Positions 5,935 through 62,338 of a stretch of 64,000 nt of DNA are shown piece after piece; positions within the stretch are counted from its first letter, which is position 1, and every line of letters starts with the position of its first letter. The DNA comes from a virus (Duplodnaviria > Caudoviricetes). The stretch is from positions 1-64,000 of IMG/VR virus record IMGVR_UViG_3300037067_007090; one strand, given 5' to 3'. The position numbers were made by a program, and so were the translations under genes. The notes under the pieces are model-generated. The model ran no database searches and was not told the DNA's origin. It saw nothing but the letters and a program-made list of their open reading frames with translations.

Positions 5935-6560
5935 TCGAAAAAACAAAAGAAATATCAAAAGAACTATCTGAATATTCAGAGTCGGAACAATTGTTTTTAC
6001 TCAATCAAATACGAACAATTCTTCACGAAACAAGTCCAATGAAAAATGAACCGGTTGATCTTGTGTTATGGGTCAAATCTGAAACAGTGGGAAAAAACGA
6101 TTATAACCCAAATACCGTTGCACCCCCGGAGATGAAATTACTTGAAACTTCAATCATAGAAGATGGATATACGCAACCGGTAGTTTCTTGGAAAACGAAC
6201 AATATTTTTGAAGTTGTTGATGGATTCCACAGAACAAGAGTAGGAAAGGAAAGCAAAGATGTCATTACACGTACACATGGATATTTACCCATTGTTAAAG
6301 TCAATCAAGAACGAACTGATCGTAATGATCGTATGGCTTCCACAATCAGGCACAACCGCGCGCGGGGGAAGCATATCGTATCGGGTATGAGCGAAATCGT
6401 ACAAGAACTAGCACATCGCAGATGGAGTAACGAGAAGATTGGTCATGAACTGGGGATGGAACCCGATGAAGTGTTACGGTTAAAACAAGTAATGGGTCTT
6501 GCAGATTTATATAAAGAACGGGAATTTTCAGAAGCGTGGGAAGCGAAAGAACAAATTTAA
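5919..6560 (+). CDS. ibrB: ParB/Srx-like protein (IbrB/YbdM)
   Basis: NDYNPNTVAPPEMKLL...VVDGFHR...STIRHNRARGKH; directly follows the IbrA-like gene. Confidence 0.85.
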   Translation: MGSDLIEKTKEISKELSEYSESEQLFLLNQIRTILHETSPMKNEPVDLVLWVKSETVGKNDYNPNTVAPPEMKLLETSIIEDGYTQPVVSWKTNNIFEVVDGFHRTRVGKESKDVITRTHGYLPIVKVNQERTDRNDRMASTIRHNRARGKHIVSGMSEIVQELAHRRWSNEKIGHELGMEPDEVLRLKQVMGLADLYKEREFSEAWEAKEQI

Positions 6561-6574
6561 AAAGGAGTATTAAA

Positions 6575-7303
6575 ATGCCACTACAAAAAGGTACGGAAAG
6601 ATACAGATTGTGGAAAGAACACATTGATGAGGCTGCTGATAAAAGGAAAAATATTCCATTATCCCCAGAACATTGTGAAAAAATAAGCGAGTCTAATAAA
6701 GGACGTATAAAATCTAAAGAAGAATGCGAACATATTAGCAAGGGGCTTAAAAACAAACCCAAGACACCGGAACATCGTAAGCATTTAAGTGAGGCCAATA
6801 TGGGAAAAACGTCTCCAAGGAAAGGTGTAAAATTATCTGATGCAACAAAAGAAAAGATTCGAGTGTCGAAACTTGGAATGAAATCATCTTTAGAAACATG
6901 CGAAAAAATAAGTGAATCTTTAATAGGAAATACCAGAACACTTGGTTATGTCCATTCTGATGAAACCAAAATTAAGATGAGAAAATCAGCACATCGTGGA
7001 CCCGACCATCCCAATTATAGAGGGGGGATAACCGCACTTGATAAAGCAATACGAAGACTTCCTGAATATGATACTTGGAAATATGGTGTATTTGAACGAG
7101 ATGATTACACCTGTAGAGAATGTGGGAAACGCGGGGGAGATATGGAAAGTCACCACGATAGAAAAACATTTGCTCAAATTATAAAAGATAATAATATTAG
7201 AACTATCGAAGACGCATTAAATTGTAAAGAACTATGGGACATTGATAACGGAGTTACATTGTGTGTTGATTGCCACGACAAAAGACACACGAAGAAAGAA
7301 TAG
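6575..7303 (+). CDS. NUMOD3-repeat HNH homing endonuclease
   Basis: Repeated K(I/L)SESxKG units; C-terminal RDDYTCREC...SHH...NGVTLCVDCH; AGGAG RBS before ATG 6575. Confidence 0.85.
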   Translation: MPLQKGTERYRLWKEHIDEAADKRKNIPLSPEHCEKISESNKGRIKSKEECEHISKGLKNKPKTPEHRKHLSEANMGKTSPRKGVKLSDATKEKIRVSKLGMKSSLETCEKISESLIGNTRTLGYVHSDETKIKMRKSAHRGPDHPNYRGGITALDKAIRRLPEYDTWKYGVFERDDYTCRECGKRGGDMESHHDRKTFAQIIKDNNIRTIEDALNCKELWDIDNGVTLCVDCHDKRHTKKE

Positions 7304-7305
7304 AT

Positions 7306-8001
7306 ATGCCACCACCGAAAGATCCGGAAAAATATGCTGCATGGATAGAAAAACAAAGATTATCCCATATAGGGAAACATGCATCACAATCCACCACTGA
7401 TAAAATGATCGCGTCACATAAAGGTCTAATTCCTTGGAATAAAGGTGTGCCTTCAACAGAAGTATCCAAGCATAACCAAAGTATCGCATTAAAAAACAAA
7501 CCGAAACCCCCACGAACAAAAGAACATTGTGAAAATATAAGCAAATCAAAAATGGGAAAAAACAATCCGATGTTTGGAGAACATCATACATTTGACGCAC
7601 ATATAAAAATGCACAACGCGCAATTGGGGAATACTAAAAAACTTGGATATCATTTCCCGTTAGAAACTAGAATAGGAATGAGTGAAGAAAATAGAGGAGA
7701 AAATGCATCCCGATGGGAAGGTGGGATAACTCCATTGAATAAAATGATCCGTGAGTCGTGGGAATATAGAGAATGGGTAATTGCCGTTTTCATTAGAGAT
7801 AATTATACTTGCCAAAAATGCAAAACGCGCGGTGGGTATTTAGAAGCACACCACATAAAACTATTTTCTTTGATTTTAAAAGAATATAATATATTAACAC
7901 TGGAAGATGCAAAGAATTGTAAAGAATTGTGGGACATAGATAATGGTATAACATATTGTGTAGATTGTCACAAAGACATACATTTCAAAAATAATAAATA
8001 A
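7306..8001 (+). CDS. NUMOD3-repeat HNH homing endonuclease
   Basis: PWNKG/NPMFG NUMOD units; RDNYTCQKC...EAHHIK...NGITYCVDCH. Confidence 0.85.
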   Translation: MPPPKDPEKYAAWIEKQRLSHIGKHASQSTTDKMIASHKGLIPWNKGVPSTEVSKHNQSIALKNKPKPPRTKEHCENISKSKMGKNNPMFGEHHTFDAHIKMHNAQLGNTKKLGYHFPLETRIGMSEENRGENASRWEGGITPLNKMIRESWEYREWVIAVFIRDNYTCQKCKTRGGYLEAHHIKLFSLILKEYNILTLEDAKNCKELWDIDNGITYCVDCHKDIHFKNNK

Positions 8002-8002
8002 C

Positions 8003-8866
8003 ATGCCTCCTCCGAAAGATCCAAAAAAATACGACGAGTGGATAAGAAAAAACAGCGAAGCACATAAAAATAAACATCCGTCTGAAGAAACACGAAATAA
8101 ATTAAAAGGAAGAAACCCGTGGAATAAAGGAATACCATTATCAGAAGAAGCAAAACAAAAATTGAGTGAATCTTGTAAAGGTAGAATCCCTTGGAATAAA
8201 GGTGTCCCTCATAAACAAGAATCTAAAAATAAAATGAGCATAAAGAAAAAAGGTATCCCATTATCAGAAGAACATAAAAAACATTTATCCGAATCTCACA
8301 AAGGATTAAAGCCAAACGTGACTCCGGAATCTATAGAAAAAAATCGTATTGCTCATCTTGGTAAAAAGGCATCGGAAGAAACAAAAGAAAAGATGAGTAT
8401 ATCACATAAAGGAAAATCTTCGTGGAATAAAGGAATTAAAACTCCGATAGAAATTAGAAATAAAATGAGCAAATCGATGAAAGGAATAAAAAAGTCTGAT
8501 GGATTTAGAAAAAATATGAGTGGTGAAAACAATCTTAACTGGAAAGGTGGTATTACAGAATTGGATAAAGCAATCCGTGCATTACCGGAAATGTTCGAGT
8601 GGAGAAGAAAAGTTTTTGAACGCGACCATTATAGAGATTGTTTTACAGGAAGTCTTGGAAATCACAATATCGAAGCGCATCATATTGTCGCGGTATCTTT
8701 AATTATGGAAAGATTTAATATAACTTCGATAGAAGATGCTTTAAATTGTGAAGATATGTGGAATATAGATAACGGAGTAACAATGTTTAAAAATTCACAT
8801 ATTGAGCATCACAAAAAATACAAATTACAAATATTACCAAAAGAATATTATTTTAAAAACCAATAA
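8003..8866 (+). CDS. NUMOD3-repeat HNH endonuclease, Zn-ligand-less variant
   Basis: Multiple PWNKGxP.SEE repeats; RDHYRDCFTG...EAHH...NGVTMFKNSH. Confidence 0.8.
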   Translation: MPPPKDPKKYDEWIRKNSEAHKNKHPSEETRNKLKGRNPWNKGIPLSEEAKQKLSESCKGRIPWNKGVPHKQESKNKMSIKKKGIPLSEEHKKHLSESHKGLKPNVTPESIEKNRIAHLGKKASEETKEKMSISHKGKSSWNKGIKTPIEIRNKMSKSMKGIKKSDGFRKNMSGENNLNWKGGITELDKAIRALPEMFEWRRKVFERDHYRDCFTGSLGNHNIEAHHIVAVSLIMERFNITSIEDALNCEDMWNIDNGVTMFKNSHIEHHKKYKLQILPKEYYFKNQ

Positions 8867-8884: not shown

Positions 8885-8908
8885 TGGTGTAGGAAAATTC
8901 CTACACCA
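8885..8908. terminator. bidirectional hairpin between convergent genes
   Basis: TGGTGTAGG-AAAATT-CCTACACCA perfect inverted repeat flanked by T and A runs. Confidence 0.6.
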
Positions 8909-8922
8909 AAACCCTTAAAGGC

Positions 8923-9261
8923 TCACTGACGCTCTCCACCTACGAAGATCCGGATAACCGGGATGAATTCGAGGAGAAGGACAATTGCACCCAAAAGGAA
9001 CAGAGCGATACCCAAGAAAGTAAATGCCAGAGACACATTGCTCTGTGCGTTGCTCATGGTCGTATTCATGATACCCGTGAGGATCGGAAGGCTGTTGAAC
9101 AAAGTTCCTACCATGAATATACCGATGACGATGAAGATTGCCCCACCGACGACCATCCCGATACCGGCGAGAGTTGCCTCACCGATTGCCTCGGAGTCGT
9201 GAACGAGCTCCATACCCTTGTGATATGCGTCCTTGAGGTAAGTCGTAACTTTCTCAAACAT
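8923..9261 (-). CDS. putative major capsid protein of spindle-shaped virus type (two hydrophobic helices); alternative: pilin-like protein
   Basis: Polar leader then GEAT, long hydrophobic helix, loop with sequons N-T-T and N-V-S, second hydrophobic helix; C/G-ending codons unlike the rest of the window; own TATA and GAGGTG RBS. Confidence 0.6.
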   Translation of the reverse strand: MFEKVTTYLKDAYHKGMELVHDSEAIGEATLAGIGMVVGGAIFIVIGIFMVGTLFNSLPILTGIMNTTMSNAQSNVSLAFTFLGIALFLLGAIVLLLEFIPVIRIFVGGERQ

Positions 9262-9364
9262 GTAAAATGCACCTCTCTCGCTTCTTAAGTCTAATGCAAA
9301 GGTATATATATTAGTTGGTGTTTACTATATACATATGTTTCCAAACGGAACATATGTGTAAATC

Positions 9365-9505
9365 ATGACACGCGATGCTGTTGTTAAAATTGATAGAAAA
9401 ATCGCCGAAGCCGGACGCGCGCGCGGTCTTAACCTAGCGACCGTTGCGGAAGAATCCATTAAGAGAAGAACTAAAAAACTGGAGGAAATTGATAAATATG
9501 ACTGA
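9365..9505 (+). CDS. small ribbon-helix-helix protein (CcdA/VapB-like), 46 aa
   Basis: Own translation: MTRDAVVKIDRKIAEAGRARGLNLATVAEESIKRRTKKLEEIDKYD; beta strand-helix-GLNL-helix pattern. Confidence 0.55.
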   Translation: MTRDAVVKIDRKIAEAGRARGLNLATVAEESIKRRTKKLEEIDKYD

Positions 9506-9761
9506 AACTTATACCGAAGATGAAATGAAAAAAGCAATGAAATATGTACAGAAGAAAGAACGCCTCATCAGCGCGCTTAACAGTGCTGTGCGCACCGCAG
9601 AAGCACCAATCTATGCAGAAGCATTAAATGAACTTATCGTGCTTCTTATTGAAGATAAACTCCTTCCGGATTCCTTTGATATCCACAAGTACTTTTCTGA
9701 CCTGTATCCGCGAGCGACGCAGAAAAAAGAAGCAAAGGATGAAGATAAAGACGTCAATTAA
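9498..9761 (+). CDS. hypothetical helical protein
   Basis: ATG overlaps the RHH gene stop; GGAGG upstream. Confidence 0.5.
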   Translation: MTETYTEDEMKKAMKYVQKKERLISALNSAVRTAEAPIYAEALNELIVLLIEDKLLPDSFDIHKYFSDLYPRATQKKEAKDEDKDVN

Positions 9762-9860
9762 AAGCGGTTTGGAAATTTATTAATCTTTTTTAATTACCCT
9801 TTGTGTACACCAAACATAACCACTGTGTTAATGTTGGTGTATGGAAGGGGGATTTTTAAT

Positions 9861-9939
9861 AGGTCTGGCCGGAGTTGAACCGGCTTACACATAGACCGTG
9901 TTTGAGACGGTTCCATAGCCGTTCTGGATACACAGACCC
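9861..9939 (-). tRNA. tRNA-Leu(CAA)
   Basis: Cloverleaf: ACCGT-CTCAAAC-ACGGT anticodon arm, GCCGG-TTCAACT-CCGGC T arm, extended variable region; no encoded CCA. Confidence 0.8.
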
Positions 9940-9942
9940 AAA

Positions 9943-10025
9943 TGAGTGATGCCGGATGCGCGCCGGCGATGTTTCCTTGTACGGAGTCTAAATCCGGTGA
10001 AGTCGGCTTCTGTTCCAATCACTCT
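9943..10025 (-). tRNA. tRNA-Leu(TAG), degenerate T loop
   Basis: GAGTGAT/ATCACTC acceptor, CGGA-TTTAGAC-TCCG anticodon arm, T loop CGCGCAT instead of TTCRANY. Confidence 0.55.
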
Positions 10026-10043
10026 CGATTTCCCACAATGGGA

Positions 10044-10129
10044 TGCGTCCGTCAGGATTTGAACCTGAAATGTTTCGCTTCGTCACAGTGTTTAAGACTG
10101 TTGCGTTCAACCGTTTCGCCACGGACGCG
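10044..10129 (-). tRNA. tRNA-Leu(TAA)
   Basis: ACAGT-CTTAAAC-ACTGT, long variable arm, TCAGG-TTCAAAT-CCTGA. Confidence 0.85.
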
Positions 10130-10130
10130 A

Positions 10131-10216
10131 TGTGTGAAGCAAGATTTGAACTTGCGTCGTTTCCTTGTCTGGAACCTCGATCCAGTGGAGTCAACCGTGC
10201 TGTCCCATTCACACAT
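10131..10216 (-). tRNA. tRNA-Leu(GAG), C33
   Basis: CTGGA-TCGAGGT-TCCAG, long variable arm, GCAAG-TTCAAAT-CTTGC. Confidence 0.7.
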
Positions 10217-10263
10217 AACTTATATGTTTTCAAATCATTTATACTTTCCCCTATGTAAGAGGA

Positions 10264-10348
10264 CGCCAACGACAGGAATTGAACCTGCAACCCTGTTAAG
10301 GGCGACGGTTTTCAGGACCGTTTAGCGCACCGCACTCCCCACGTTGGC
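10264..10348 (-). tRNA. tRNA-Ser(TGA), C33
   Basis: ACGGT-CCTGAAA-ACCGT, variable stem CCCT/AGGG, T loop TTCAATT. Confidence 0.7.
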
Positions 10349-10357
10349 AATAATATG

Positions 10358-10433
10358 AGCCGGATGAGAGAATTGAACTCCCGCCCTTTCGATTACAGAT
10401 CGAATGCACCAAACCAACAGATGCTTATCCGGC
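10358..10433 (-). tRNA. tRNA-Thr(TGT), C33
   Basis: GCCGGAT/ATCCGGC acceptor, TTCGA-TCTGTAA-TCGAA, short variable loop, U73; a Tyr(GTA) reading would need a 1-nt shift. Confidence 0.65.
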
Positions 10434-10435
10434 GA

Positions 10436-10523
10436 CGCTGCCTGAAAGATTTGAACTTTCGTTTCCGATCAGGAAAGCAACTTTAGCAGAATTGCGGCAT
10501 AAACCAGACTCGCCCAAGGCAGC
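10436..10523 (-). tRNA. tRNA-Ser(GCT)
   Basis: GCTGCCT/AGGCAGC acceptor, CAATT-CTGCTAA-AGTTG, long variable arm. Confidence 0.85.
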
Positions 10524-10675
10524 AAGATGAAACCAATACAAAACACCCTCACGATGTGGTGAGAAGCGTCAAACTGGACAGTAAACGCAATGATAGAATA
10601 GATGTTGATACGTTTATATTTACTGTCATGATATATAATAGTGTATGTTGTAATAGTATTTAAATATTTCTACAA

Positions 10676-10757
10676 TTGGTGGAGAGGGATTTGAACCCTC
10701 GAAGCACTAAACACCGGATTTTGAATCCGGCCCCTTTGACCGCTCGGGTATCCACCA
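10676..10757 (-). tRNA. tRNA-Leu(CAA), second copy
   Basis: CCC-GAGCGGTCAAA-GGG D arm, CCGGA-TTCAAAA-TCCGG, GAGGG-TTCAAAT-CCCTC; own TATA upstream. Confidence 0.85.
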
Positions 10758-10887: not shown

Positions 10888-13800
10888 CTAAAAACCCCAC
10901 TTCCCCAACGTCGGAGTCGCCGGGTCAAACTCGCACCAGTTGAAATTCAACGGTTCCATAATCCGTGATAACGGAGTCTTTAAAGTCTTCTCTAACATTG
11001 TATCAACATCAACTATAAAAATGTTTCTATCTATTTGATCCGCATACTCAAAACAAACTACATCCGTGCGCGGATATTTTGAAGTAACATTCTTAATATA
11101 TAAACGTTTCGGTTTTGACCCCTTACCAAAATTCGTTCCCAGATAAGTGTTAGAATACACCGCCGCGCGCACCTGCGCATCTTGGATATCATATTCTTCC
11201 AATGGTTTACCAATGCCGCCGGGAATTCCTACATCGTCGAGACTATATTTACCCGCGCGGTATTTACGTATAACATCCGAAATAGTAGTTCTGATTTCTT
11301 CATAAGGTTTGCCCTCAAGAACCATCTCGATAAGTGTTTTCATTGCGTCACGTGTGACCTTGGGGGAATCCGACCGCTTGGTTTCAAAACCCACAATATC
11401 AATTTTATGCGCGTCTACACCTTCCTTCCAAATAAGGAGTCCAGCGTATCGCTTCTTCTTCCCGCCGCTAAAAAATCTCTGGTATAATTTTTCAAATTTC
11501 ACGGAGAAATATTGAACATCGGCATTTAATGTTTCTTTTGCAAACTGTGGATATGAGTTATTAAGAAGCGTTTCAAGTTCCTTCGCAATAAACATAGTTC
11601 CTTCTTTCCCAATACTTTTTGGTATCTTTATACCAACCGAATCGGTATCACCAAAAACAATTTTATATTCTTCGTGTTCTACAAGTTTTTTGTTGTGCTC
11701 CAAAAGCGCGCGCCCTACTGATGTAATAGCCGAACCCACGTCACGGTCATTAAGACGGAACATCGGATTTGCCGAAACCCCATAATAAGAATTCATGCAA
11801 ACCTTAACCACGTCCTGTTTCATATTTAAAAGTTTATACTCACGAGAATCAAAAGGATACTTATTCCGTTCCTTTTTCATCTCATCTCGTTCACGTAAAA
11901 ATTTCGCCTGAATCTTTCTAACCAATCCATCGGGTTCTTTTTTAAATCTGACACCATTAGGAGCGCGCAGTTCTCCTTTTGGATCTTTGGTTTCTGGAGA
12001 TGCATTAATAGTCATCATCGACATTGGATACAATGATTTAGCATCCAAAACAGCAACGTTTTCTTGCACTCCGCGCATGGGAGCAATAACCGTAGCCCCT
12101 TCAAACGATTCTTGTGTATTTATAGAATTTGCCTTTGAAGGTAAAATAAACCCATTTTCTTTTGCTTCTCTCAAAACCAACATATCAATAATAGGCATAC
12201 TATTTGTTGTCTTTTCCAGAGGACACCCGGCATAATGAGCAACATACCTGTGGAATTCAACAGTTTCGTCTTTTGCATTAATACCTACACATAATTCCAC
12301 ATCAGTGAAGTTATAGTAAACCAGATTGGTAGGATCTTCTTTCCATAAATCGAAAACCTTTCCATTGTGATGGATTTTTTGTTTCCCCAATTCTTCTAAT
12401 GCTATTGCATCAAGGCGATAAGAAGGTTGTTCACCCAAATGCATTCTTTTATACCCGGATAATAAATCAAAAAGTTGACGACCTTTGATTTCTATGCGCC
12501 CGGTGTTTCCACTAGGCAACCGCGACCACGCATCGCGCGGGATACCTAATACATCCATACGACCCAGAATGTAAGGTATATCAAATTCATTACAATTATG
12601 TACAACGCAACCAATCGAAAAATTATGTTCTGTCGTTTCAATATCGTAGCAATTTTTAGGCACGTCGTTACTTACATTTTTTACCCGCAGATACATATTA
12701 GTTAGATTTCTATTAAAATTAAATCTGAAATGATCTTTCCTAGTAACTCGTTTTCTCTTAATTATATGGATTTTATTTTTTATTTTCTTCTGCAAAAACT
12801 TTTTCATACACTCTAATAGTTTTTGGGTTATACATAAGATCCGTAAATTTATATTACATGTAGATGAAGTTATCGCACCAAATCCTGCAAATAACTGAAA
12901 ATGCCGAATATTAATAGTATGATCTCCTATACAAAAGACATCTGAATACCCATCGCCATCATACCATCCAGCTAAAAAAGCCCCGAACTCTTCTACAGAT
13001 AGACGAGATAATAAACCAAAATTGAGTTGTTTCTTATCACCAACCAGAATGAGATGTTCTGCCCCTTTTAGATCTCGCTGCAATATATTAGAACACCAGA
13101 CACCTTTTGTAAACCATCTATGGTTTTCCCCGCAACATCTATTAATGAGGTTTATATTTTTATTGTAAAATCTAAATCTCCACTTATCTGGTCTGGCGCC
13201 ATCGGAATAAATAAGTCCAGCCCTGTAACAATTAAAAGGATCAAGCCCGAGACCAATATTATTTTCATACTGCCGTATTGGAATATGCAATATACTATCA
13301 GAAGTTATATTTTTAGAAATTTCGTATGTTGGTTCATAGTTTTCGCAATGTTCCCACACATAATGACGATCTTGTGGAATTTGAGAAACTAACATTCGAT
13401 GATCTTCCCCAACAATAAAATCCCATCCAATAGATGTTCTTATACGAGTTGTATTCTTAACCCCCGTATTATAAACGGATACAACTTTTCCACCTGTGTT
13501 TAAAACAATACCCGGTATTAATGCCTTAATTGGTATAAGACCGTTTTTTGTGTCAACCATTGTATCTTCTGGAACGCAGTTCCACCCCGTAATAATATCC
13601 GGATCTGTGGATTTGATATATTCACAAAAATCCACAAGAAGAGATTTTTCATCCGTGTATGTTATAACGTCGTGGTGAGCGGGATCAAAGCACCCGTTCT
13701 CTTTAGGTGTTTCTATAAGAGGTGAAGTAGCGACAACAAATGTAATATAACGATTTGTAAAACTATCATGACAAGTAATGCAAAAAATTGGATCTTTCGT

Positions 13801-14259
13801 TGCATCCGGGAACCCGCGTTCATCAGAACATTCAATATCCACAATACAAACGCGCGCGGGATAGTTTAAATCTTTGAATAATATGTCGTCAATCGTGCAT
13901 GGTGATTGTGTATAAGAGAAACCAGATTTTATTTTTGTATCAATCAGAAACCTCAATGTGTATAAAATATCCGCTTCATAGTGTTTAGAAAACTTCTCGC
14001 GCGATTCAAAAATGTCACCGGGTTTTTGAGTAATGACTTTCACCAAAGGTTCATGGAGAATGGAAAAATATTCATTTGAATCAACTTCGGAGGGTGGTGT
14101 TGCTTTGGGGGATTCTGATGCGGGAACAAAAAAATAAGGTTTGAAACCAACCACATCCACACGATGAGAAACACCGGAGGAGTCACGACCGAAGATGTTA
14201 ATGACAGGAGAGTTGTTATGGAAGGAGTATTCGGCTTGAGTTAAGCAGAGATCAGGCAT
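10888..14259 (-). CDS. polB: family B DNA polymerase (archaeal type) with one intein
   Basis: Exo I DIEC, Exo II GWN..FD, Exo III YNFTD; DAKSLYPMS, KVCMNSYYG, FGDTDS, KKRYAG. Confidence 0.95.
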   Translation of the reverse strand: MPDLCLTQAEYSFHNNSPVINIFGRDSSGVSHRVDVVGFKPYFFVPASESPKATPPSEVDSNEYFSILHEPLVKVITQKPGDIFESREKFSKHYEADILYTLRFLIDTKIKSGFSYTQSPCTIDDILFKDLNYPARVCIVDIECSDERGFPDATKDPIFCITCHDSFTNRYITFVVATSPLIETPKENGCFDPAHHDVITYTDEKSLLVDFCEYIKSTDPDIITGWNCVPEDTMVDTKNGLIPIKALIPGIVLNTGGKVVSVYNTGVKNTTRIRTSIGWDFIVGEDHRMLVSQIPQDRHYVWEHCENYEPTYEISKNITSDSILHIPIRQYENNIGLGLDPFNCYRAGLIYSDGARPDKWRFRFYNKNINLINRCCGENHRWFTKGVWCSNILQRDLKGAEHLILVGDKKQLNFGLLSRLSVEEFGAFLAGWYDGDGYSDVFCIGDHTINIRHFQLFAGFGAITSSTCNINLRILCITQKLLECMKKFLQKKIKNKIHIIKRKRVTRKDHFRFNFNRNLTNMYLRVKNVSNDVPKNCYDIETTEHNFSIGCVVHNCNEFDIPYILGRMDVLGIPRDAWSRLPSGNTGRIEIKGRQLFDLLSGYKRMHLGEQPSYRLDAIALEELGKQKIHHNGKVFDLWKEDPTNLVYYNFTDVELCVGINAKDETVEFHRYVAHYAGCPLEKTTNSMPIIDMLVLREAKENGFILPSKANSINTQESFEGATVIAPMRGVQENVAVLDAKSLYPMSMMTINASPETKDPKGELRAPNGVRFKKEPDGLVRKIQAKFLRERDEMKKERNKYPFDSREYKLLNMKQDVVKVCMNSYYGVSANPMFRLNDRDVGSAITSVGRALLEHNKKLVEHEEYKIVFGDTDSVGIKIPKSIGKEGTMFIAKELETLLNNSYPQFAKETLNADVQYFSVKFEKLYQRFFSGGKKKRYAGLLIWKEGVDAHKIDIVGFETKRSDSPKVTRDAMKTLIEMVLEGKPYEEIRTTISDVIRKYRAGKYSLDDVGIPGGIGKPLEEYDIQDAQVRAAVYSNTYLGTNFGKGSKPKRLYIKNVTSKYPRTDVVCFEYADQIDRNIFIVDVDTMLEKTLKTPLSRIMEPLNFNWCEFDPATPTLGKWGF
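12595..13578 (-). mobile_element. LAGLIDADG intein (328 aa) in the PolB Exo II motif
   Basis: GWN|CVPEDT...CVVHN|CNEFD; internal RAGLIYSDG and LAGWYDGDG motifs. Confidence 0.92.
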
Positions 14260-20737: not shown

Positions 20738-23096
20738 ATGGAAACTTACGAAGATAAACTCATTAAAGAACGATATTGCGTCGATGGAGAAAATAGTTAT
20801 CCCGATGTTTGTGAACGTGTAGCGCGATTCATTTCAAGCAACGACGAACAATATCATCAGTTCAAGAAAATTCTTGTAGATAAAGATTTTTTGCCCAACT
20901 CACCAACCCTGATGAATGCCGGAACTTCTAACCCCGCCTTGTCAGCGTGTTTCTTTTTGCCGGTAGAAGATACAATTGAAAGTATTTTTGATGCTAACAA
21001 AAATGCAGCAAAAATCTTCGCTCGTGGGGGCGGGGTCGGATTCAATTTCTCAAAACTCCGACCCGCTGGAAGCAAAGTTGGAAAACGCAACGGTGTTTCC
21101 TCCGGTGTGGTTTCATTTATGGAAGTTTTTAACACAATGACAGAGGTTGTCAAGCAAGGAGGCCGTCGCCGGGGAGCTATGATGGGATGCCTTGATATTG
21201 CGCATCCAGAAATCAAAAACTTTGTGACATGTAAACAGACAGAAGGAAAACTCTCTAACTTTAATATCTCTGTCAAACTCACAGATGAATTCATGAAGAA
21301 TCCCACACCCGAAATCATGAACTTGATTGTGAACGGAATTTACAATAACGGAGAGCCGGGAATTCTGTTCAAAGATACAATCGAAAAGTATAACCCGGCT
21401 CCCGAATATGGAGAACTCAATACAAATCCATTAAACTCCGTGTGGATTTAAAATCGCGTAAATTGCTGGAACACCCTTAAGCATCTCTAACTACAACGCA
21501 ATCAGAAATGATAAACGTGAACGTTTTAAAAATAGAAATGATTGGGCAATCAGCAGCCAAGCATCTTATCAATAAGATGAAGGTTCAGAGACTATAGACG
21601 CGACATCGATGATATAGTCCGATCTCATATGAGAATATGAGAGTGTGACAGAAATGATCACACCTGCAACGAAGCATCGTTGCTGTAACAAAAAACCTCT
21701 TGGCGGGGAGGCTCTATTAGAATCATGGGGGAGCTGCAACTTGGGTAGCATCAACCTTTCCCACCACATAAAAGACAATGCAATTGACTACGACAAACTC
21801 AAAGCCACAATAGACACAGCGGTTATATTCCTCAATAATGTAATCGACAAAAACAAATACCCACTCCAAGAAATTGACTTTGCATCCAAGCGAACGCGCA
21901 AGATCGGTCTCGGTGTTATGGGATTCCACGACGCGTTGATTAAAATGGGGATTCCTTATAATAGTCAGAAGGCACTTGATATTGCCGAAGAAATTATGAA
22001 ATTTATTAATGAGCGCGCACATGAAGTGTCAGAGTCATTGGGTAAGAATCCGAATATCAAACAGAACAGGTTAAATGCTTCATTGACTTCGATTGCACCA
22101 ACGGGAACAATTAGTATTATTGCGGGTGCTTCATCAGGTATCGAACCCGCATTTAATTGGGTATATACGCGGCATGACACGTTGGGCGAACATTATATTG
22201 TGCATCCGTTGTTTGAAGAAGCGTTGAAAAATCTAATGACTGATCTTAATGGCAAAGTAGGATTCTTCGTAACCGTGGATGGCGTAAAATATGATACGTT
22301 GGATGGAACGAGACAAGCCATTATTAGACACTGCCATGAAAAGGGGACGATTCGCGATATAGAATTTTTACCAGATTCTTTCAAACTCCTCTACCAAAAC
22401 GCAATGGACATCCCTTCATCAATGCACGTAAAAATGCAGGCCACATTCCAAAAGAATGTGGATATGTCCATTTCAAAAACAATCAACCTTCCAAACTCTG
22501 CTACTAAAGAAGAAATCAAACAGATCATTATTGACGCGTGGAAGAGTGGTTGTAAAGGTCTTACAATCTATCGCAATGGTAGCCGTGAGAATGAAGTGTT
22601 GGCACTTAAGAAACCCGTGGTTGTTGAAAGTATCGTAGATTGGATCGAAACTGAAAATGCTTTCTACGAATCCAAAACCCCCGCTGTAATTTACAAAGTC
22701 CATAGTGGATGCGGGAAATTCTATGTTATCATTGGCCACGACAAAGAGGAACCAACAATGATCTTTGTGGAAGGTGATGGTGTTGGTGGGTGTCAGGCAA
22801 ATATGGCAGCAATGGGGCGTTCTATTTCGGCAGGATTGGAATGGGGGACACCAGCAGAGAACTATGTAAAACAATTCTCTAAAGTAAAGTGCATGACGGC
22901 GATGCAGAACAAATTATCGTGTGGTAAATCGTGCGCGGATATTACAGGAAAATGTTTGGACGATGCGATAAAAATGTTAATGCCCAAAAGTATAAAGGTT
23001 GAAGCAACAGAAGAAAAATGTTGTGACGCGCCGCATTATGTGATGGAAGGCGGATGCAGGATTTGTACGAATTGTGGCAAAAGTAGGTGTTCGTGA
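20738..23096 (+). CDS. nrdJ: class II (B12-dependent) ribonucleotide reductase, two exons (20738-21431 + 21703-23096), C-terminal TSCPD-like/Zn-ribbon domain
   Basis: FLPNSPTLMN, ACF, GGGVG, QGGRRRGA, spliced TNP-C-GE, SCNLGSINL, RKIGLGVMG, IAPTGTIS, SISKTINL, GCKGLTIYR. Confidence 0.92.
21432..21702 (+). mobile_element. group I self-splicing intron (271 nt, no ORF)
   Basis: Core elements AATTGCTGGAAC (P), AATCAGCAGC (Q), GTTCAGAGACTATA (R), GATATAGTCC (S); P1 AAATCCAT/GTGGATTT with U-G at the 5' splice site; P10 CTCCGT/GCGGGG; terminal G; removal restores the NPCGE frame. Confidence 0.93.
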
Positions 23097-27470: not shown

Positions 27471-28259
27471 ATGCCTCCTCTCGTTTCTGTTATCATTCCA
27501 ACTCACAACCGCAACCTATCTTTAAAACGAGCAATCCAAAGTGTCCTAGATCAGACTTTTACAGATTATGAAATTATTGTTGTAGATGACACATGGGCAA
27601 CCAACGAAATTTCCGATAATTATCCAAATGTCCATTTTCTTCATATACCTACAACATCATATCCAGCCATATCCAGAAACATGGGCATTAAAGTTTCAAA
27701 TGGAAAATACATTGCCTTTTTAGATGATGATGATGTTTGGTATCCAGAAAAATTAGCATCGCAGATATCAAGATTATTAATAGACCCAAAATTAGGATTG
27801 GTTTGCAGTAACGGGAACATAGGAAAAGATTTATATATTAAAAGAAATATTACAAATGAACCCGACATGCTTCCACAGGAAATAATAGGGGATTTCGTTG
27901 TAACATCGTCATGTGTAATTCGCAGAAGTTTATTGGAAAAAACAGGTCTATACAACCTGCTCCCACTTTGTGAAGACTATGATTTCTCAATAAGATTTGT
28001 AGCAACAACACAAATTTATTACGACCCGACACCTTTGTTTGAATATACTATTTCAGAAAATAGTATACAAAAACGAAGTAACTATTCCTTTGTTGCTTAT
28101 CACCAAAACGTTATAAAAGTAATGGAAAATTTACGAGAATTTTTAAAAAGGAACAATCTGGAAAAACCAGAAACATCGTTTTTAATTCATTATAGAATTC
28201 TCGATGAAAAAATAATGGTAATGTGGAATATAGTTAAAGATTTTATTAGAGGATATTAA
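27471..28259 (+). CDS. GT2 glycosyltransferase
   Basis: VSVIIPTHNR, VVDD, SRNMGI, AFLDDDD, EDYD. Confidence 0.9.
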   Translation: MPPLVSVIIPTHNRNLSLKRAIQSVLDQTFTDYEIIVVDDTWATNEISDNYPNVHFLHIPTTSYPAISRNMGIKVSNGKYIAFLDDDDVWYPEKLASQISRLLIDPKLGLVCSNGNIGKDLYIKRNITNEPDMLPQEIIGDFVVTSSCVIRRSLLEKTGLYNLLPLCEDYDFSIRFVATTQIYYDPTPLFEYTISENSIQKRSNYSFVAYHQNVIKVMENLREFLKRNNLEKPETSFLIHYRILDEKIMVMWNIVKDFIRGY

Positions 28260-29252
28260 ATGACAAAAATCTTTTTCGCCGGAGATATGCGCAGTCCTTT
28301 TATACAAGGAGATGCAGAACTTTTAAAGGAAGATCACGATGTTTTTATTTTTAACACCCCGATCAAAAAAATGGATTTTCCGCTTTATCTATTTAAATGT
28401 TTTCAACAAGTTTTAAATATTAGAAAATCAAATCTCGTCTGGGTTTGGTTTGCAGATTGCCCGGCACTACCATTAGTTATTATTGCAAAAATATTTAATA
28501 TACCCACAGCTGTGAATGTCGGTGGATTTGAAGTTTCTGGAATATCTGAAATTAATTATGGAAATCAACTTAAACCAATCCGTGGATATGTTTCAAGATG
28601 GATTATAAGAAATGCAACAGAAATTATTGTTCCTTCCCCCGTATACAATGTTAAAACATTAAAAGTTGGTATAGGAATAAAATTGATGGATAATACATTT
28701 GCATTGCCCGAAGACGATTATTATTTTGAAAATTATTACTTAACCCACACAATGGCTCATATAATCACAATTCCGAATTGGGTTGATACGGAAACTTGTG
28801 ATATACCACTTCCACAAAAAGAAGATCTTGCTGTAACCGCCGTGTGTTCGAAACATGCGTATGCTTATAAAGGAATTTCAATATTTCAAGAAGCATCAAA
28901 AAATATTCTTTATAACACAAAAATATTAGAACATCTCCCACGAAAAGAATACGAGGACTATTTGAAACGCGCCAAAGTCTATTGCCAACTTTCACGCGAT
29001 GAAACATTTGGTATCTCACTTGTAGAGGCAATGGCATATGGTTGTGTGCCTGTTGTTAGCGATAAAGGTGCTTTGCCGTGGATTGTAGAAGACACGGGTA
29101 TTATCGTGCCTTATGGAGATGTTACAGCAACTATTAATGCAATTAATAAAGCAATGACTATGGACGGTTCAAAAGCGCGTGAGCGCGCACGTTATTTCAG
29201 CCGTGAAAGAAAACAAGAATCGGTGAAACAACTCATCAAGGAATTAATATGA
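28260..29252 (+). CDS. GT4 (GT-B) glycosyltransferase
   Basis: ETFGISLVEAMAYGCVPVVSD. Confidence 0.88.
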   Translation: MTKIFFAGDMRSPFIQGDAELLKEDHDVFIFNTPIKKMDFPLYLFKCFQQVLNIRKSNLVWVWFADCPALPLVIIAKIFNIPTAVNVGGFEVSGISEINYGNQLKPIRGYVSRWIIRNATEIIVPSPVYNVKTLKVGIGIKLMDNTFALPEDDYYFENYYLTHTMAHIITIPNWVDTETCDIPLPQKEDLAVTAVCSKHAYAYKGISIFQEASKNILYNTKILEHLPRKEYEDYLKRAKVYCQLSRDETFGISLVEAMAYGCVPVVSDKGALPWIVEDTGIIVPYGDVTATINAINKAMTMDGSKARERARYFSRERKQESVKQLIKELI

Positions 29253-30421
29253 CACGTATTCTTATACTCGGAGACTACCCACTACCCAATGAAACAATAA
29301 CCGGCGGAATAATGCGGTCAGTTTATTTAACTGCCAATGCATTATCAAAATTGTGCCCAGAATATGACTTTCACGTATTGACAATCACGGATGGAATTGA
29401 TAAATCTTTTGTGTCAATCAACAAAAATCTTGCAATCCATTATATCCATTTTCCTTTAAGAAACAAACCAATCTTGGTTCCAAAATTCCTTTCCAAGCAA
29501 TTGATATTGCATGAAATAAATAAAATAAAACCAGATTTAATCCACGCCAATGGTTCAAGCTGGGAATATGGATACCCAGCAATTGCATATAAAAAATGTC
29601 CTGTTCTTATAACTGTTCACGGAGTGTCACACAATGAATCAAAATATTGGTCTGGTCTAAAAGGCGCGTGGCATCGTATAAGTTGTTGTAAAATGGAATC
29701 ACACATCTTTGAAAAAATGGAAAACGTTGTTGCCGTTTCTTATTATGTAGAAAGAGAAATGAGAAAATGCATATCGAAAACACAATATGGAAACTATGCG
29801 ATACATGTAGATGTCATTTCCAACCCGGTTGATCCATGTTTTATGGATGTTACAACAAAATACACAATACCAAATCTATTATTATATGTTGGGGGGATTG
29901 AAAAACGAAAAGGATTAGACGTTCTTATCCGATCACTTTATATAGTTAAAAAACAAATGCCTTATATAAAATTGAATGTCGTTGGTTCGATACGAAGTCC
30001 TATATATTGCGCAGATATAATGAAACTCATTTCCGATTTGGATTTAATTGACAATGTGAATTTTGTTGGAAAAGTAAGCGATACATTATTAATGAAAGAA
30101 TATTCTAATGCATCAATATATATTTCACCTTCATATGAAGAATCAGAGGGTATAACCATTCTTGAAGCGATGGCTACAGGAACACCAGTAATAGCAACCC
30201 GGTCGGGCGGTTCGGAAAGTATAATAAAAGATGGTGTTGATGGATTGTTGGTAAAAAACGGAAACCACGAAGAACTAGCATTTAAGATTTTAATTTGTGG
30301 TGATGCATTAAAAGAGCAACTTGGAAAAGGAGGGAGGGAAACAGCATTGAAATATTTACCGGAGAATATTGCGAAACAGTATATGGAAGTTTACAGGAGG
30401 TTGTTGAAATGCCAAAACTAA
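29249..30421 (+). CDS. GT4 (GT-B) glycosyltransferase
   Basis: KRKGLDVL, ESEGITILEAMATGTPVI. Confidence 0.9.
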   Translation: MTRILILGDYPLPNETITGGIMRSVYLTANALSKLCPEYDFHVLTITDGIDKSFVSINKNLAIHYIHFPLRNKPILVPKFLSKQLILHEINKIKPDLIHANGSSWEYGYPAIAYKKCPVLITVHGVSHNESKYWSGLKGAWHRISCCKMESHIFEKMENVVAVSYYVEREMRKCISKTQYGNYAIHVDVISNPVDPCFMDVTTKYTIPNLLLYVGGIEKRKGLDVLIRSLYIVKKQMPYIKLNVVGSIRSPIYCADIMKLISDLDLIDNVNFVGKVSDTLLMKEYSNASIYISPSYEESEGITILEAMATGTPVIATRSGGSESIIKDGVDGLLVKNGNHEELAFKILICGDALKEQLGKGGRETALKYLPENIAKQYMEVYRRLLKCQN

Positions 30422-31053
30422 CCGAACGGGAGCGCGAAGGATTTGAAAAAATACTAACGCAGGATTTGAAAGCAATCAATCAACGCTTTATCAGTCAGAT
30501 AAAAGATTTCTGGGGAATTGCTCGTAGTAATGTGCTTAAACGAAAAGGATGGGATACTCTCATACTCGAAAAAGAACAACTGGAACGGAAACAAAAAGAA
30601 ATTAAACAAAGAATGCACGAGATAGAAGATATTTTAAATAGTGAAAAATTGAGAGTAGAACAAGTGGTTGAACTCGGTGGAAAATCAAATGAATATGGAC
30701 GATGCGAAGGTGCGAACTTTTATGGAATTCCGATTACATCACAATTTGAATATGAAATTGTAGAATACATCAAAGCAAATATTGACCTCGAAGTGCCGGC
30801 AAAAATGTTGCGTGATGTATGTGAATCATCAATCCGCGCTCTCGTAATGGCTGGAACGTTTGAAGAAGCACGTGGGGCATATGAAAAGTTTTATTCTCTG
30901 GATTTCAGAAAGTATGGTGTTGATATTCCCCCACGATTGGATGATATTTGTGCCAACAAAAATTCAATGTTATATGCTCAACAATCATTGCAACAAATTG
31001 AAAAAGAAAAACCGGATATTAAGTTGATTGAATGTAAGGAGGAGAAAGAATGA
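30409..31053 (+). CDS. hypothetical coiled-coil protein
   Basis: Charged heptad-rich ORF in the operon. Confidence 0.55.
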   Translation: MPKLTEREREGFEKILTQDLKAINQRFISQIKDFWGIARSNVLKRKGWDTLILEKEQLERKQKEIKQRMHEIEDILNSEKLRVEQVVELGGKSNEYGRCEGANFYGIPITSQFEYEIVEYIKANIDLEVPAKMLRDVCESSIRALVMAGTFEEARGAYEKFYSLDFRKYGVDIPPRLDDICANKNSMLYAQQSLQQIEKEKPDIKLIECKEEKE

Positions 31054-31234
31054 AAGATGGTTATAAATTAACAATATTTTTAAGTGTTATAGTAATAATA
31101 TTGGCAATATTTATACATGGCACAGTTATTCATTTAACACAAGTGGGTGAATTTCAAAAATGTGTAAATGCAACACTTTCTGATCCACTCTATTCCACAT
31201 TTGCATGTGATAGACCGGGATGGTGGTTTGGAAT

Positions 31235-34420: not shown

Positions 34421-34421
34421 A

Positions 34422-60805: not shown

Positions 60806-62338
60806 CTACTGTATGGATCGAGTGAGATTTAATATCTCACTCTCATTTTTACGTTCGTACAGACTCCATGCTCCGGAAAAAACTTCTGTATATTCGTCAT
60901 TTACCCTTTTTACAATATTTTTCTTCTCGATGGAATCTAATCCAAACCAACCATCCGCTTTCCCCAAAGGTCCATCTGCGAGGATATATCTATTAGAATA
61001 GTTCATAATACACATATATTCTTCTTTGTATGCCGGCAACGTACTTACAATTGTTCGGTTTGGATTCATTCTCTGTATAACTAATGGTGCGACGTAGCGG
61101 CAACTACTATTCGTAGAAAAATAGTACGGAGCCGATCCCGTATCGAGATACAAAAGTGTATTTTCTTTAGATAAATTAAACTTTATTTCAATTGCATTTG
61201 CATTTTCATTGAAATAATTGTTCATCTTCAACTCCTGAACGCCGTAATTTTGTTCTAGACCCCAGATTGGTTGTGGACTATAAAGAATGCACCACATTGC
61301 GAATAGAACGAGGATTGATGCGGATACAACATTTTCGCGCTTAATTTTTTTAGTTATCCCTCTTTCCCTTGGTGTGTCTATCTCGTAAAGCACAATACCG
61401 ACGATGGCAGGGAGAAGAAAAACGTAATACTGGTACGCAAAACTCTCGCTTTGATAAAAAACCACAAATAACGGGGCTAAAAATGAAATTACAAACCATT
61501 TTGCGCGCGGATCGCGAATATGATTTTTTAACCACACGCCACTGTATATAATTCCGATGCCAATACAGGGAATATATATACTCATCGAGATTACTGTTGC
61601 AATACCGGTTACTCCGATTTGCCCTATCCAATCATATTCACCCACGTGACTTAAAATTGGAGCCATGAGAATGTCAGGGATAATTTGTGGCCATACAAAA
61701 ATATCTGCCGCGAGGAATGCCAAACCCATTAATATGAAACCAATCACACCACGAATCAAATCTATATGTTTATTAAAAATCAATACGATACACACGGCGG
61801 AAACTATAAGGCACCCCGTTGTGCCTTTAACCAACAATACCCAAATTAAAAGTGCGCCGGCGATATAGTGCCAAAGATTACTCTTCTCCACGAAGAGCGC
61901 GCATGAAATCATTGCGAAAATAATTGCTAAAAATTCAGCCTGTAAAATATTTAAATTGAGCGCGCAGAACATTCCGAAGAAGCAGAGGAGGAACGAGTAT
62001 TTTACCTTTAATATATTTTTTGAAAATAACCACGATGCAAAAATAACTAAAGCGACCGCAACACATTTAATTATCGGTTCCTGTAAGGCGTGATTTGAGA
62101 ATGGGACAAAGATATTAGTAAACAACGCAATGAGAAATTCACATATGTGATTCCCAACCGGTTTTATTTCCCAAAAACCGCCGTAAACATTTTGTGGGAA
62201 TGATAGGTATTTTATCCCTAATTCCTCAATTCCGTAAAAAATCCGAACGTCATTAGTAAGAGGCGAAAGTATAGAACCAACTGCCACTATTGGAAACATT
62301 ATAAAATATAACAACTTCTCGAAAATCGTAAACGCCAT
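60806..62338 (-). CDS. multi-pass membrane protein, GT-C (ArnT/PMT-like) glycosyltransferase candidate
   Basis: About 10 TM helices, N-terminal D...F...G...Y...WEIKP.G loop, soluble C-terminal domain. Confidence 0.55.
   Translation of the reverse strand: MAFTIFEKLLYFIMFPIVAVGSILSPLTNDVRIFYGIEELGIKYLSFPQNVYGGFWEIKPVGNHICEFLIALFTNIFVPFSNHALQEPIIKCVAVALVIFASWLFSKNILKVKYSFLLCFFGMFCALNLNILQAEFLAIIFAMISCALFVEKSNLWHYIAGALLIWVLLVKGTTGCLIVSAVCIVLIFNKHIDLIRGVIGFILMGLAFLAADIFVWPQIIPDILMAPILSHVGEYDWIGQIGVTGIATVISMSIYIPCIGIGIIYSGVWLKNHIRDPRAKWFVISFLAPLFVVFYQSESFAYQYYVFLLPAIVGIVLYEIDTPRERGITKKIKRENVVSASILVLFAMWCILYSPQPIWGLEQNYGVQELKMNNYFNENANAIEIKFNLSKENTLLYLDTGSAPYYFSTNSSCRYVAPLVIQRMNPNRTIVSTLPAYKEEYMCIMNYSNRYILADGPLGKADGWFGLDSIEKKNIVKRVNDEYTEVFSGAWSLYERKNESEILNLTRSIQ

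Follow-up and report, generated by a model that had tools for sequence, protein, structure and literature searches.

A 112-residue hairpin protein as candidate major capsid protein precursor of a very large spindle-shaped archaeal virus

Introduction

Spindle- or lemon-shaped capsids are unique to archaea and are thought to be elastic shells composed of sliding helical strands of a tiny hydrophobic hairpin protein. In fuselloviruses such as SSV1, both of the coat proteins VP1 and VP3 are glycosylated. The VP1 of SSV19 is a hydrophobic alpha-hairpin (residues 15-44 and 54-83) with a 9-residue loop that makes up the outside of the capsid and termini that point inward (PMC9351363). Large spindle viruses with enzymatic gene arms are already known, as those predicted for ANME-1 archaea (Pletoitzamnavirus, Tepeuviridae) combine a structural arm with an enzymatic arm and encode an RNA-primed family B DNA polymerase (PolB) together with auxiliary phosphoadenosine phosphosulfate (PAPS)-reductase and asparagine-synthase genes, while the Itzamnaviridae carry two copies of the major capsid protein (MCP) (PMC9894754). 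Also known are the Eurekaviridae, spindle viruses of Methanosarcina with two coat-protein genes. A further lemon-shaped virus, LSV-48N of Haloferax (PP151251), has been purified; its authors saw no open reading frame (ORF) resembling a known capsid protein, and the most abundant protein in tryptic mass spectrometry was a large SSV19-tail-like protein. Here, we analyse a 64,000-nucleotide stretch of viral DNA (positions 1 to 64,000 of IMG/VR record IMGVR_UViG_3300037067_007090; hereafter, the window), in which a 112-aa gene probably encodes the precursor of the MCP of a very large spindle-shaped archaeal virus.

Results

The gene lies at 8923..9261 on the minus strand of the window, which in turn forms the first 64 kb of an 87.8-kb contig (C3) assigned to a 1.27-Mb metagenome-assembled genome (MAG; assembly G000). 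A 112.5-kb IMG/VR contig (G001), rated by CheckV as 82% complete, encodes the same protein at 97% identity. The description of this gene as a candidate MCP precursor draws upon the ORF and its translation, a structure model and two family alignments (A1 and A4). Its product consists of a polar leader (residues 1-25), the sequence AIGEAT, a hydrophobic stretch, a loop region and a second hydrophobic stretch, followed by a short glycine-rich tail ending in G-G-E-R-Q. Two N-glycosylation sequons occur in the loop region, N-T-T at residues 66-68 and N-V-S at residues 75-77, the former being encoded at 9058..9066 (-) and located at the boundary between the loop and helix 2. All of these elements, namely the length, leader, GEAT sequence, two hydrophobic helices and both sequons, had been listed in an earlier note on this DNA and can be read directly from the ORF.

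An AlphaFold2 (AF2) model computed with the family alignment as input (predicted local distance difference test score, pLDDT, 81.7) places helices at residues 2-20 (the leader), 23-56 and 64-107, with a 7-residue loop at 57-63 and pLDDT values of 87-94 over the two hairpin helices. The model therefore presents a hydrophobic alpha-hairpin of two helices of roughly 30 residues joined by a short loop, as in the VP1 and VP3 proteins of the Fuselloviridae, and supports the view that the protein has the predicted architecture of a spindle-virus alpha-hairpin coat protein.

The gene is also the most codon-optimised of its genome. Its GC content at third codon positions (GC3) is 0.62, compared to 0.34 +/- 0.07 (mean and standard deviation) across the 43 ORFs in the window that reach 150 aa or more, and its third-position C content of 0.36 exceeds both the mean (0.157) and the maximum (0.253) of that same set. 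Isoleucine is encoded by ATC rather than ATT at a ratio of 11:1, phenylalanine by TTC rather than TTT at 7:2, and glycine by GGT rather than GGC at 9:0. The hydrophobic composition of the protein is not the cause of this bias, since the other 11 of the contig's 12 most hydrophobic ORFs have a third-position C content of only 0.04-0.25, bar one artefact with a value of 0.42. The latter, an 80-aa hydrophobic ORF at 39434-39676 (+), was rejected as an antisense reading of a 74-aa Zn-ribbon gene at 39449-39673 (-). The preference for C-ending codons, previously remarked upon for this gene alone, is a conserved trait of the family to which it belongs: among 14 such genes taken from divergent elements, 10 rank first in their locus for third-position C content (z 1.8-7.1), the background GC3 of these elements ranging from 0.25 to 0.65.

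Profile searches assembled this family to a total of 82 clusters, all of them metagenomic and none annotated in Pfam, of which single-sequence searches had recovered five close and six distant clusters. No match was returned by tblastn of the 112-aa protein and a Methanosarcinales-type family member against 50,697 virus records. Across the family, the first sequon is retained almost without exception, with Asn66 in 78/82 clusters and Thr or Ser at +2 in 82/82; glycines G40, G84 and G91 are invariant, and the motif AFT opens helix 2. The junction between the leader and helix 1 follows the pattern D22-x-x-A25|I26, with Ala present in 76/82 clusters and succeeded by Phe, Ile or Tyr, whereas GEAT is limited to the five closest clusters and lies two residues further downstream. 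This qualifies an earlier suggestion that the leader is matured like that of SSV1 VP1. BLASTP does align the 112-aa protein at the GEAT maturation site of SSV1 VP1 (E 2e-4), but the feature shared by the family as a whole is the D-x-x-A|F/I/Y junction. Tandem paralogues are the rule in family contexts (L022, L024, L033, L052 and others), some of them with a loop insertion of about 120 aa; the two coat-protein genes of the Eurekaviridae follow a like arrangement.

An ATPase accompanies the family gene in 8/8 independent contexts having at least 10 kb of sequence. For these module ATPases, phrog_5484 is the top or only PHROG match (2.9e-12 for the protein encoded at G001 79157-80134), and this same PHROG contains both SSV1 B251 (5e-101) and His1 ORF16 (3e-62). 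BLASTP of a module ATPase against SSV1 B251 gives 2e-6. A hidden Markov model (HMM) of the ATPase assigns 48.5 bits to SSV1 B251, 16.6 to His1 ORF16 and 72.0 to its LSV-48N counterpart, compared to -1.5 for VP8 of the pleolipovirus HRPV-1. By sequence, then, the module ATPase belongs with SSV1 B251 and His1 ORF16 and not with pleolipovirus VP8, so that an ATPase of the type expected of a spindle-virus gene module does occur in the same element as the candidate coat protein. Furthermore, among 50,697 deposited virus genomes, its only match is the lemon-shaped LSV-48N.

The best family match within LSV-48N (L054) is a 166-aa "hypothetical protein" encoded at 12785-13285 (-), which scores 12 bits (p=0.011). 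It resembles the family in its leader, first transmembrane (TM) helix, N-N-T loop, TAF...G...G pattern and glycine-rich tail, and its gene heads an operon with genes for 824- and 904-aa proteins, the latter being homologous to a 730-aa protein of the proviruses described below. LSV-48N differs from the present element in its size of 24.9 kb, its haloarchaeal host and the lack of a match to the peptidase discussed below. Proteins of this kind are missed by tryptic mass spectrometry. By its sequence and gene position, the 166-aa protein is a candidate for the capsid protein left unassigned in the published work on LSV-48N.

L032 and L033 (39-41% identity) are the nearest outgroup contigs, and in both the family gene closes one contiguous module. 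Here, a giant protein (1274 aa in L032; running off the contig end in L033) is followed by a 243-259-aa protein, the ATPase, three small to mid-size ORFs, two 269-334-aa proteins anchored at both ends, an ORF of about 150 aa and finally the family gene, present once or twice. Most of these module genes have scattered homologues in contig C3 and G001. In G001, the ATPase and its neighbour are found at 79-81 kb (ATPase at 79157-80134), two doubly anchored proteins of about 320 aa at 82.6-84.5 kb and a giant protein of 1526 aa at 87-92 kb. The proteins of about 320 aa were considered as cryptic capsid proteins and ruled out by their TM anchors at both ends. A second and more distant group is formed by L005, L035, L022 (a Methanoperedenaceae MAG locus) and L052 (genome G066), in which the family gene heads about 12 co-directional ORFs that include the same ATPase and proteins of 900 aa. 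Modules often contain adhesin-like or lectin-domain proteins of 700-1500 aa as well; the proteins of 1274-1526 aa, the Laminin_G_3/DUF2341 proteins and the doubly anchored proteins of about 320 aa are conserved among them, and homology of these to SSV VP4, B210 or C131 was not demonstrated.

Weaker family members reside in integrated elements of about 26 kb in G226 and G232, two single-contig chromosomes from the class of the Methanoperedenaceae MAG (G226:C1:931495-958066 and G232:C1 about 2675000-2699000; loci L048-L051). These elements are bounded by a tRNA-Thr gene and a tyrosine integrase with a Zn ribbon (385 aa), and encode a rolling-circle Rep (458 aa), the family protein (133 aa), a B251-type ATPase (293 aa), a Laminin_G_3 protein (665 aa), two proteins of about 730 aa and an integrase-like protein (202 aa) homologous to that at G001 69691-70290. 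The family occurs in only 6/392 genomes of this class, a pattern to be expected of a mobile element.

Another recurrent partner is a short Peptidase_A24 gene, found in 5/8 of the long contexts and additionally in the 2-kb L004. In contig C3, it encodes 171 aa at 79275-79790 (-), 15 kb past the end of the window, and a counterpart lies at G001:103843-104340. Homologues adjoin family genes in L004, L022, L032, L035 and L052. The peptidases of these elements range from 127 to 171 aa and both of their catalytic aspartates, D26 and D84 (the latter within a GGAD-x-K/R motif), are invariant. Cleavage by A24 enzymes takes place on the cytoplasmic side of the membrane, ahead of the N-terminus of a hydrophobic helix, and it is because the A|F/I/Y junction has this layout that we propose A24 maturation for the family protein. 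The literature searched contained no report linking A24/PibD peptidases to the maturation of spindle-virus coat proteins, nor did it name a protease for SSV1 VP1; likewise, nothing on the family or on PibD cleavage of VP1 was found in Makarova et al. 2014 (PMC4158269) or Rowland et al. 2019 (PMC7217056), and the SSV1 annotation includes no A24 peptidase gene.

The pairing of this peptidase with such a junction recalls class III signal proteins, the substrates of PibD, FlaK and EppA, which the earlier note had set against its own capsid proposal. The likeness is real in so far as a small residue at -1 and a hydrophobic residue at +1 directly precede a hydrophobic helix and the dedicated aspartyl peptidase retains both catalytic residues. 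It does not extend to the rest of the class III layout: Ala occupies -1 in 76/82 clusters, but no more than 27/82 have Lys or Arg at -2. The leader is also longer, and a second TM helix takes the place of a globular domain. The peptidases are likewise short, and neither T2SSE (PilB/FlaI) nor T2SSF (PilC/FlaJ) appears in the Pfam listings of any family context. In our reading of these sequences, the A24 peptidase is more plausibly the maturation protease of the family protein than a sign of a pilin.

Contig C3 and G001 are collinear throughout the whole of C3, including its end with sugar-enzyme, TnpB and PKD-protein genes. C3 bridges both ends of G001, and G001 46.8-95.9 kb in turn fills the gap between the ends of C3. 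Since each contig bridges the ends of the other, the map must be circular or permuted, with a size estimated from this overlap at roughly 120 kb in the variant represented by G001 and roughly 137 kb in that represented by C3. Many insertions differ between the two, with C3 using 87.8 kb for content that takes about 65 kb in G001. The genome, for which at least 64 kb had been claimed, is thus far larger than the window itself. A reading of C3 64-88 kb as host chromosome with a tRNA-Ala attachment site was discarded, as G001 is collinear there too. Their primase-helicases (window 52871-55228 in C3) share just 23% identity, suggestive of module replacement.

None of the hallmark genes of head-tailed viruses (an HK97-fold MCP, large terminase and portal) was found in G000 or G001, in agreement with their reported absence from the window. 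Six-frame searches of G000 with PF05065, PF03237, PF03354, PF17289 and PF04860 (capsid, terminase and portal families) were negative, as were searches of G001 and G002 with PF03237 and PF05065. PHROG and Pfam scans of the ORFs of the window, the whole of contig C3 and G001 identified no structural family among the matches listed. The part of G001 missing from C3 holds 67 ORFs (ten at 79-96 kb and 57 more) that were screened by HMM libraries alone, and these comprise nucleic-acid enzymes, HNH endonucleases, transposases and one ATPase among the matches listed.

The bin from which C3 derives proved to be a misleading guide to its host. It contains a transfer-messenger RNA (tmRNA) gene at C17:3310-3707 (tag ANKIAKATFSWKVPAFAPVVA), and McrA has no match in it despite an estimated completeness of 99.6%, from which we conclude that the MAG is bacterial. 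Its long ORFs for LigA, PheT and IF-2 have bacterial-looking N-termini as well, and McrA-motif and 16S-motif searches returned nothing. The MAG can consequently be dismissed as the host, and C3 belongs to an archaeal virus and was placed in a bacterial MAG by a binning error, which matters to any user of that MAG and also means that the bin carries no host information. Two further contigs of the MAG, C25 (GC 53%) and C31 (GC 65%), look foreign too. A methanogen host, as the earlier note envisaged, is thus unproven; the sole clue is the presence of distant family members in the Methanoperedenaceae MAG and five other genomes of its class.

Several putative expression signals surround the 112-aa gene, for which a promoter and terminator of its own had been claimed. 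The divergent intergenic region contains a TATA-box-like sequence, TAATATATATA, at 9303..9313 (-), 42-52 nt 5' of the ATG, and a Shine-Dalgarno-like sequence, GAGAGGTG, is located at 9270..9277 (-), 8 nt 5' of the ATG; both were read from the sequence, as the available promoter scan is of the sigma-70 type, which does not extend to archaeal promoters and is irrelevant for an archaeal virus. The terminator can be upheld only in part. A perfect 8-bp inverted repeat, GGTGTAGG-AAAATT-CCTACACC, lies at 8886..8907 between the convergent family gene and an HNH gene and is flanked by T-rich runs, making it a possible bidirectional terminator, but it does not satisfy the bacterial-type intrinsic-terminator consensus in a terminator scan.

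Directly 3' of the family gene, three tandem NUMOD3/HNH homing-endonuclease genes (6536..8866, +; Pfam NUMOD3 and HNH_2) abut it and replace the downstream neighbours present in relative L003. A NUMOD3 gene is also located directly 3' of the family gene in the distant relative L032 (L032:10452-11240). It would seem that the vicinity of this gene, conserved and highly expressed as it is, attracts free-standing homing endonucleases. On the other side, two small divergent ORFs (46 aa and about 85-105 aa; 9365..9761, +) are conserved along with the family gene in L003, a close relative, whose ORFs they match at 83% and 73% identity by tblastn. These are candidate local regulators, the 46-aa product appearing ribbon-helix-helix-like by eye, and in both L004 and L024 family genes have small AbrB/MazE-type neighbours. 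A cluster of seven tRNA genes (Leu x4, Ser x2 and Thr; 9860..10757, -; ARAGORN) is positioned directly upstream of the promoter region.

The remainder of the window bears out the previously noted PolB, ribonucleotide reductase (RNR) and tRNAs, with eight tRNAs in all, an RNR large subunit split over two ORFs (20738..23096, +), a primase-helicase, methylases, radical-SAM enzymes and many glycosyltransferases and HNH endonucleases. The PolB (10888..14259, -) is of the RNA-primed type and is interrupted by an intein, such that its viral relatives align in two pieces. A second intein occurs in a B12-binding radical-SAM enzyme (31220..33712, +; Pfam Intein_splicing), and the two inteins, together with the split RNR large subunit, make up the load of selfish elements. 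PAPS-reductase and asparagine-synthase genes are also present in the element. Its potential for glycan synthesis includes a block of GT2, GT1 and GT4 glycosyltransferases assigned by Pfam (27471..31053, +), a further GT2 at 34359-35291 and a 510-aa protein with about 10 TM segments (60806..62338, -) having a predicted GT-C glycosyltransferase fold (PMT_2/ArnT/GT87-like; ESM Atlas feature score 0.99, TM-score 0.76) and no Pfam or PHROG match. A homologue of the latter adjoins the family gene in L032, where it is split into 182- and 338-aa ORFs (tblastn 1.5e-33 and 7e-39). The 510-aa gene lies in the C3 stretch bridging the ends of G001, and G001 is without it. Judging from these genes, the virus would encode its own glycan synthesis capacity.

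Discussion

The current analysis suggests that the 112-aa gene most probably encodes the precursor of the MCP of a very large spindle-shaped archaeal virus. In favour of this reading, no head-tail module was found, the ATPase is of the spindle type, the predicted architecture is that of a hairpin coat protein and the codon bias extends throughout the family. The case rests mainly upon genomic context: the ATPase accompanies the family gene in every long context, and LSV-48N supplies its only match among the deposited virus genomes. The kinship of the family with described coat proteins cannot be shown from sequence alone, although the weak and independent signals all point toward the same two families, VP1/VP3 and the His1 capsid protein. 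Using topology-preserving shuffles as the null, the family HMM gives 10.1 bits to His1 VP21 (p=0.006) and 11.6 bits to a His1-like MCP (p=0.008), with a decoy maximum of 5.3, VP21 being its top-scoring reference virion protein. Of the six weak PHROG matches to the 112-aa protein, two are the VP1 and VP3 families (E about 8), and the nearest Pfam-named ESM Atlas clusters are His1_capsid and VP1_VP3 (0.85 each), which we regard as a lead only. We regard homology of the family to the known spindle MCPs as unproven but plausible.

A number of observations weigh against this reading. The 112-aa ORF has no match to PF06281 (VP1_VP3; cut-off 25 bits) or PF25665 (His1_capsid; cut-off 27 bits) even at E<=10, with six-frame PF06281 searches of G000 and G001 returning only noise elsewhere. 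Comparison to a combined fusellovirus/His1 MCP profile by hhalign reached a probability of 29% with alignment A1 and 5.5% with A4, and single-sequence hhalign against MCPs yielded 15-19.5, barely over the best of 79 two-TM decoys (17.2). Fusellovirus VP1/VP3 do not rise above the null with the family HMM (p 0.2-0.3). A Foldseek search of the AF2 model against BFVD and PDB produced nothing at E<=0.001, a helical hairpin being non-discriminating in this respect. Neither the Foldseek search, a check called for by the earlier note, nor the hhalign comparisons gave a significant match, and the note's placement of the protein within the known spindle MCP families did not hold. In addition, holins are among the top PHROG and Pfam matches, albeit non-significantly (phrog_689, E 0.077; PF10779 (XhlA), E 0.099; PF07332 (Phage_holin_3_6), E 0.14). 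In the window, the family gene stands alone, far from the other module genes, and the nearest viral relatives of the PolB are tailed haloarchaeal viruses of the HF1/HRTV type (31-33% identity). A very divergent capsid of another fold is conceivable among the 67 G001 ORFs.

Compared to the described spindle viruses, the present element offers a mixture of shared and distinct qualities. Like His1 VP21, the protein is small, with two hydrophobic helices and a short loop bearing N-x-S/T, and its partner ATPase is of the His1 ORF16 type; it differs by virtue of its 25-aa leader and longer helices, and His1 has a linear genome of 14.5 kb with a protein-primed PolB rather than a map of about 120-137 kb with an RNA-primed one. 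In common with fusellovirus VP1/VP3, it is predicted to have an N-terminal leader cleaved ahead of the first hydrophobic helix (...KG|EAT... in SSV1) and an alpha-hairpin with its loop outside, and it shares an identical GEAT at the junction (SSV1 VP1), a B251 ATPase and paralogues that differ by a loop insertion, much as VP1 differs from VP3. Fusellovirus genomes, however, span just 15-24 kb. The ANME-1 spindle viruses, as they have been described, share the RNA-primed PolB as well as the PAPS-reductase and asparagine-synthase genes, the largest of them being a tepeuvirus of 72.6 kb compared to at least 112.5 kb here (PMC9894754).

Among the alternatives, the protein could be the main membrane protein in the virions of an archaeal virus that is enveloped, pleomorphic or of some other non-spindle type, or of a vesicle-forming element, residing in a lipid envelope like pleolipovirus VP3 rather than in a spindle shell. 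The protein is certainly small and hydrophobic, its codon usage implies high expression, and its sequence links to spindle MCPs are non-significant. Moreover, the elements of about 26 kb in G226 and G232, with their rolling-circle Rep, integrase, NTPase and spike-like lectin proteins, are reminiscent of pleolipoviruses. We nonetheless consider this explanation unlikely, given that the ATPase HMM rejects HRPV-1 VP8 and accepts SSV1 B251, His1 ORF16 and LSV-48N, HRPV-1 VP3 reaches just 1.6 bits with the family HMM (p=0.24) and the sole deposited virus sharing the module ATPase is lemon-shaped. Furthermore, we know of no precedent for a vesicle-type particle with a genome of at least 112 kb.

Another possibility is that the gene specifies a non-structural small membrane protein serving in holin-like egress and lysis or in superinfection exclusion. 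Two TM helices and a short charged C-terminal tail do resemble class II holins, holins top the non-significant matches and the gene lies apart from the rest of its module in the window. Every one of the holin matches is far below its cut-off, however, and holins are not usually the most codon-optimised genes, unlike the family gene in most of the loci examined. The conserved sequon, the tandem paralogues with large loop insertions and the dedicated leader peptidase are likewise a poor fit, as are the operon-head position and the operons ending in giant adhesin-like proteins, all of which renders this scenario quite improbable.

Similar odds apply to the proposal that the element is a head-tailed archaeal virus having a structural module that is either too divergent to recognise or located outside the contigs, in which case the 112-aa protein would be an accessory membrane protein. 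Large tailed viruses typically have PolB, RNR, tRNAs, HNH endonucleases and a circular or permuted map of more than 100 kb, tailed viruses also supply the nearest viral PolBs, and G001 is only 82% complete according to CheckV. Yet, C3 and G001 together close a circular map, the searches of G000 and G001 described above detected no capsid, portal or terminase, the element carries a spindle-type ATPase and module, and an RNA-primed PolB is also encoded by the large ANME-1 spindle viruses. Finally, a type IV pilin-like protein cleaved by the A24 peptidase and assembled into a filament or surface structure would account for the element-encoded peptidase and the Ala|Phe/Ile/Tyr junction, but it is very improbable in light of the second conserved TM helix that returns through the membrane where a globular C-terminal domain would be, the scarcity of Lys or Arg at -2, the lack of PilB/FlaI and PilC in the context Pfam listings and a conserved ATPase that is of the B251 rather than the PilB type.

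If the gene does encode a spindle-virus coat protein, a plausible sequence of events can be envisioned for its assembly. The precursor would first enter the host membrane, keeping its two termini on the cytoplasmic side and exposing the loop to the exterior. This topology agrees with the capsid orientation of SSV19 VP1 and would place the sequon where N-glycosylation is possible. N66-T-T in the loop could then be N-glycosylated, with the virus supplying the sugar-nucleotide, glycosyltransferase and GT-C enzymes, and the leader would be removed at D-x-x-A25|I26, with G27|E28 as the alternative site, by the virus-encoded short Peptidase_A24. Mature hairpins may subsequently pack laterally via G40, G84 and G91 into multi-start helical strands similar to those of SSV19, yielding a sliding-strand shell with room for a genome of about 120-137 kb. 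The tail or adsorption end would presumably be built from the giant protein (1526 aa in G001) together with the doubly anchored proteins of about 320 aa.

Taken together, the individual proposals amount to a broader claim, namely that this is the coat protein of by far the largest known spindle virus (about 120-137 kb versus a reported maximum of about 75 kb), that it founds a new and widespread MCP family of 82 clusters, that it is matured by an A24 peptidase and glycosylated by the virus itself through a GT-C enzyme, that it is also the capsid protein of LSV-48N and that it marks inducible proviruses in the class of the Methanoperedenaceae MAG. As a conjunction, we view this as possible and put it forward tentatively. 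Were the MCP reading correct, the novel aspects would be the unannotated coat-protein family, its tie to an A24 peptidase, the candidate MCP of LSV-48N and a genome about twice that of the 72.6-kb tepeuvirus.

Several implications would follow for the biology of spindle viruses. Firstly, with a genome of about 120-137 kb, the known upper size of spindle viruses would almost double, which would provide a test of the idea that their architecture evolved for larger genomes. Secondly, the A24 peptidase would be the first concrete candidate for a protease that matures a spindle-virus coat protein, and it would mechanistically link capsid maturation to the processing of pilins and archaellins. For LSV-48N, the 166-aa protein constitutes a specific and testable candidate for its missing MCP. 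Alignment A4 may likewise serve as a usable marker for archaeal viruses that are missed by the current Pfam and PHROG models.

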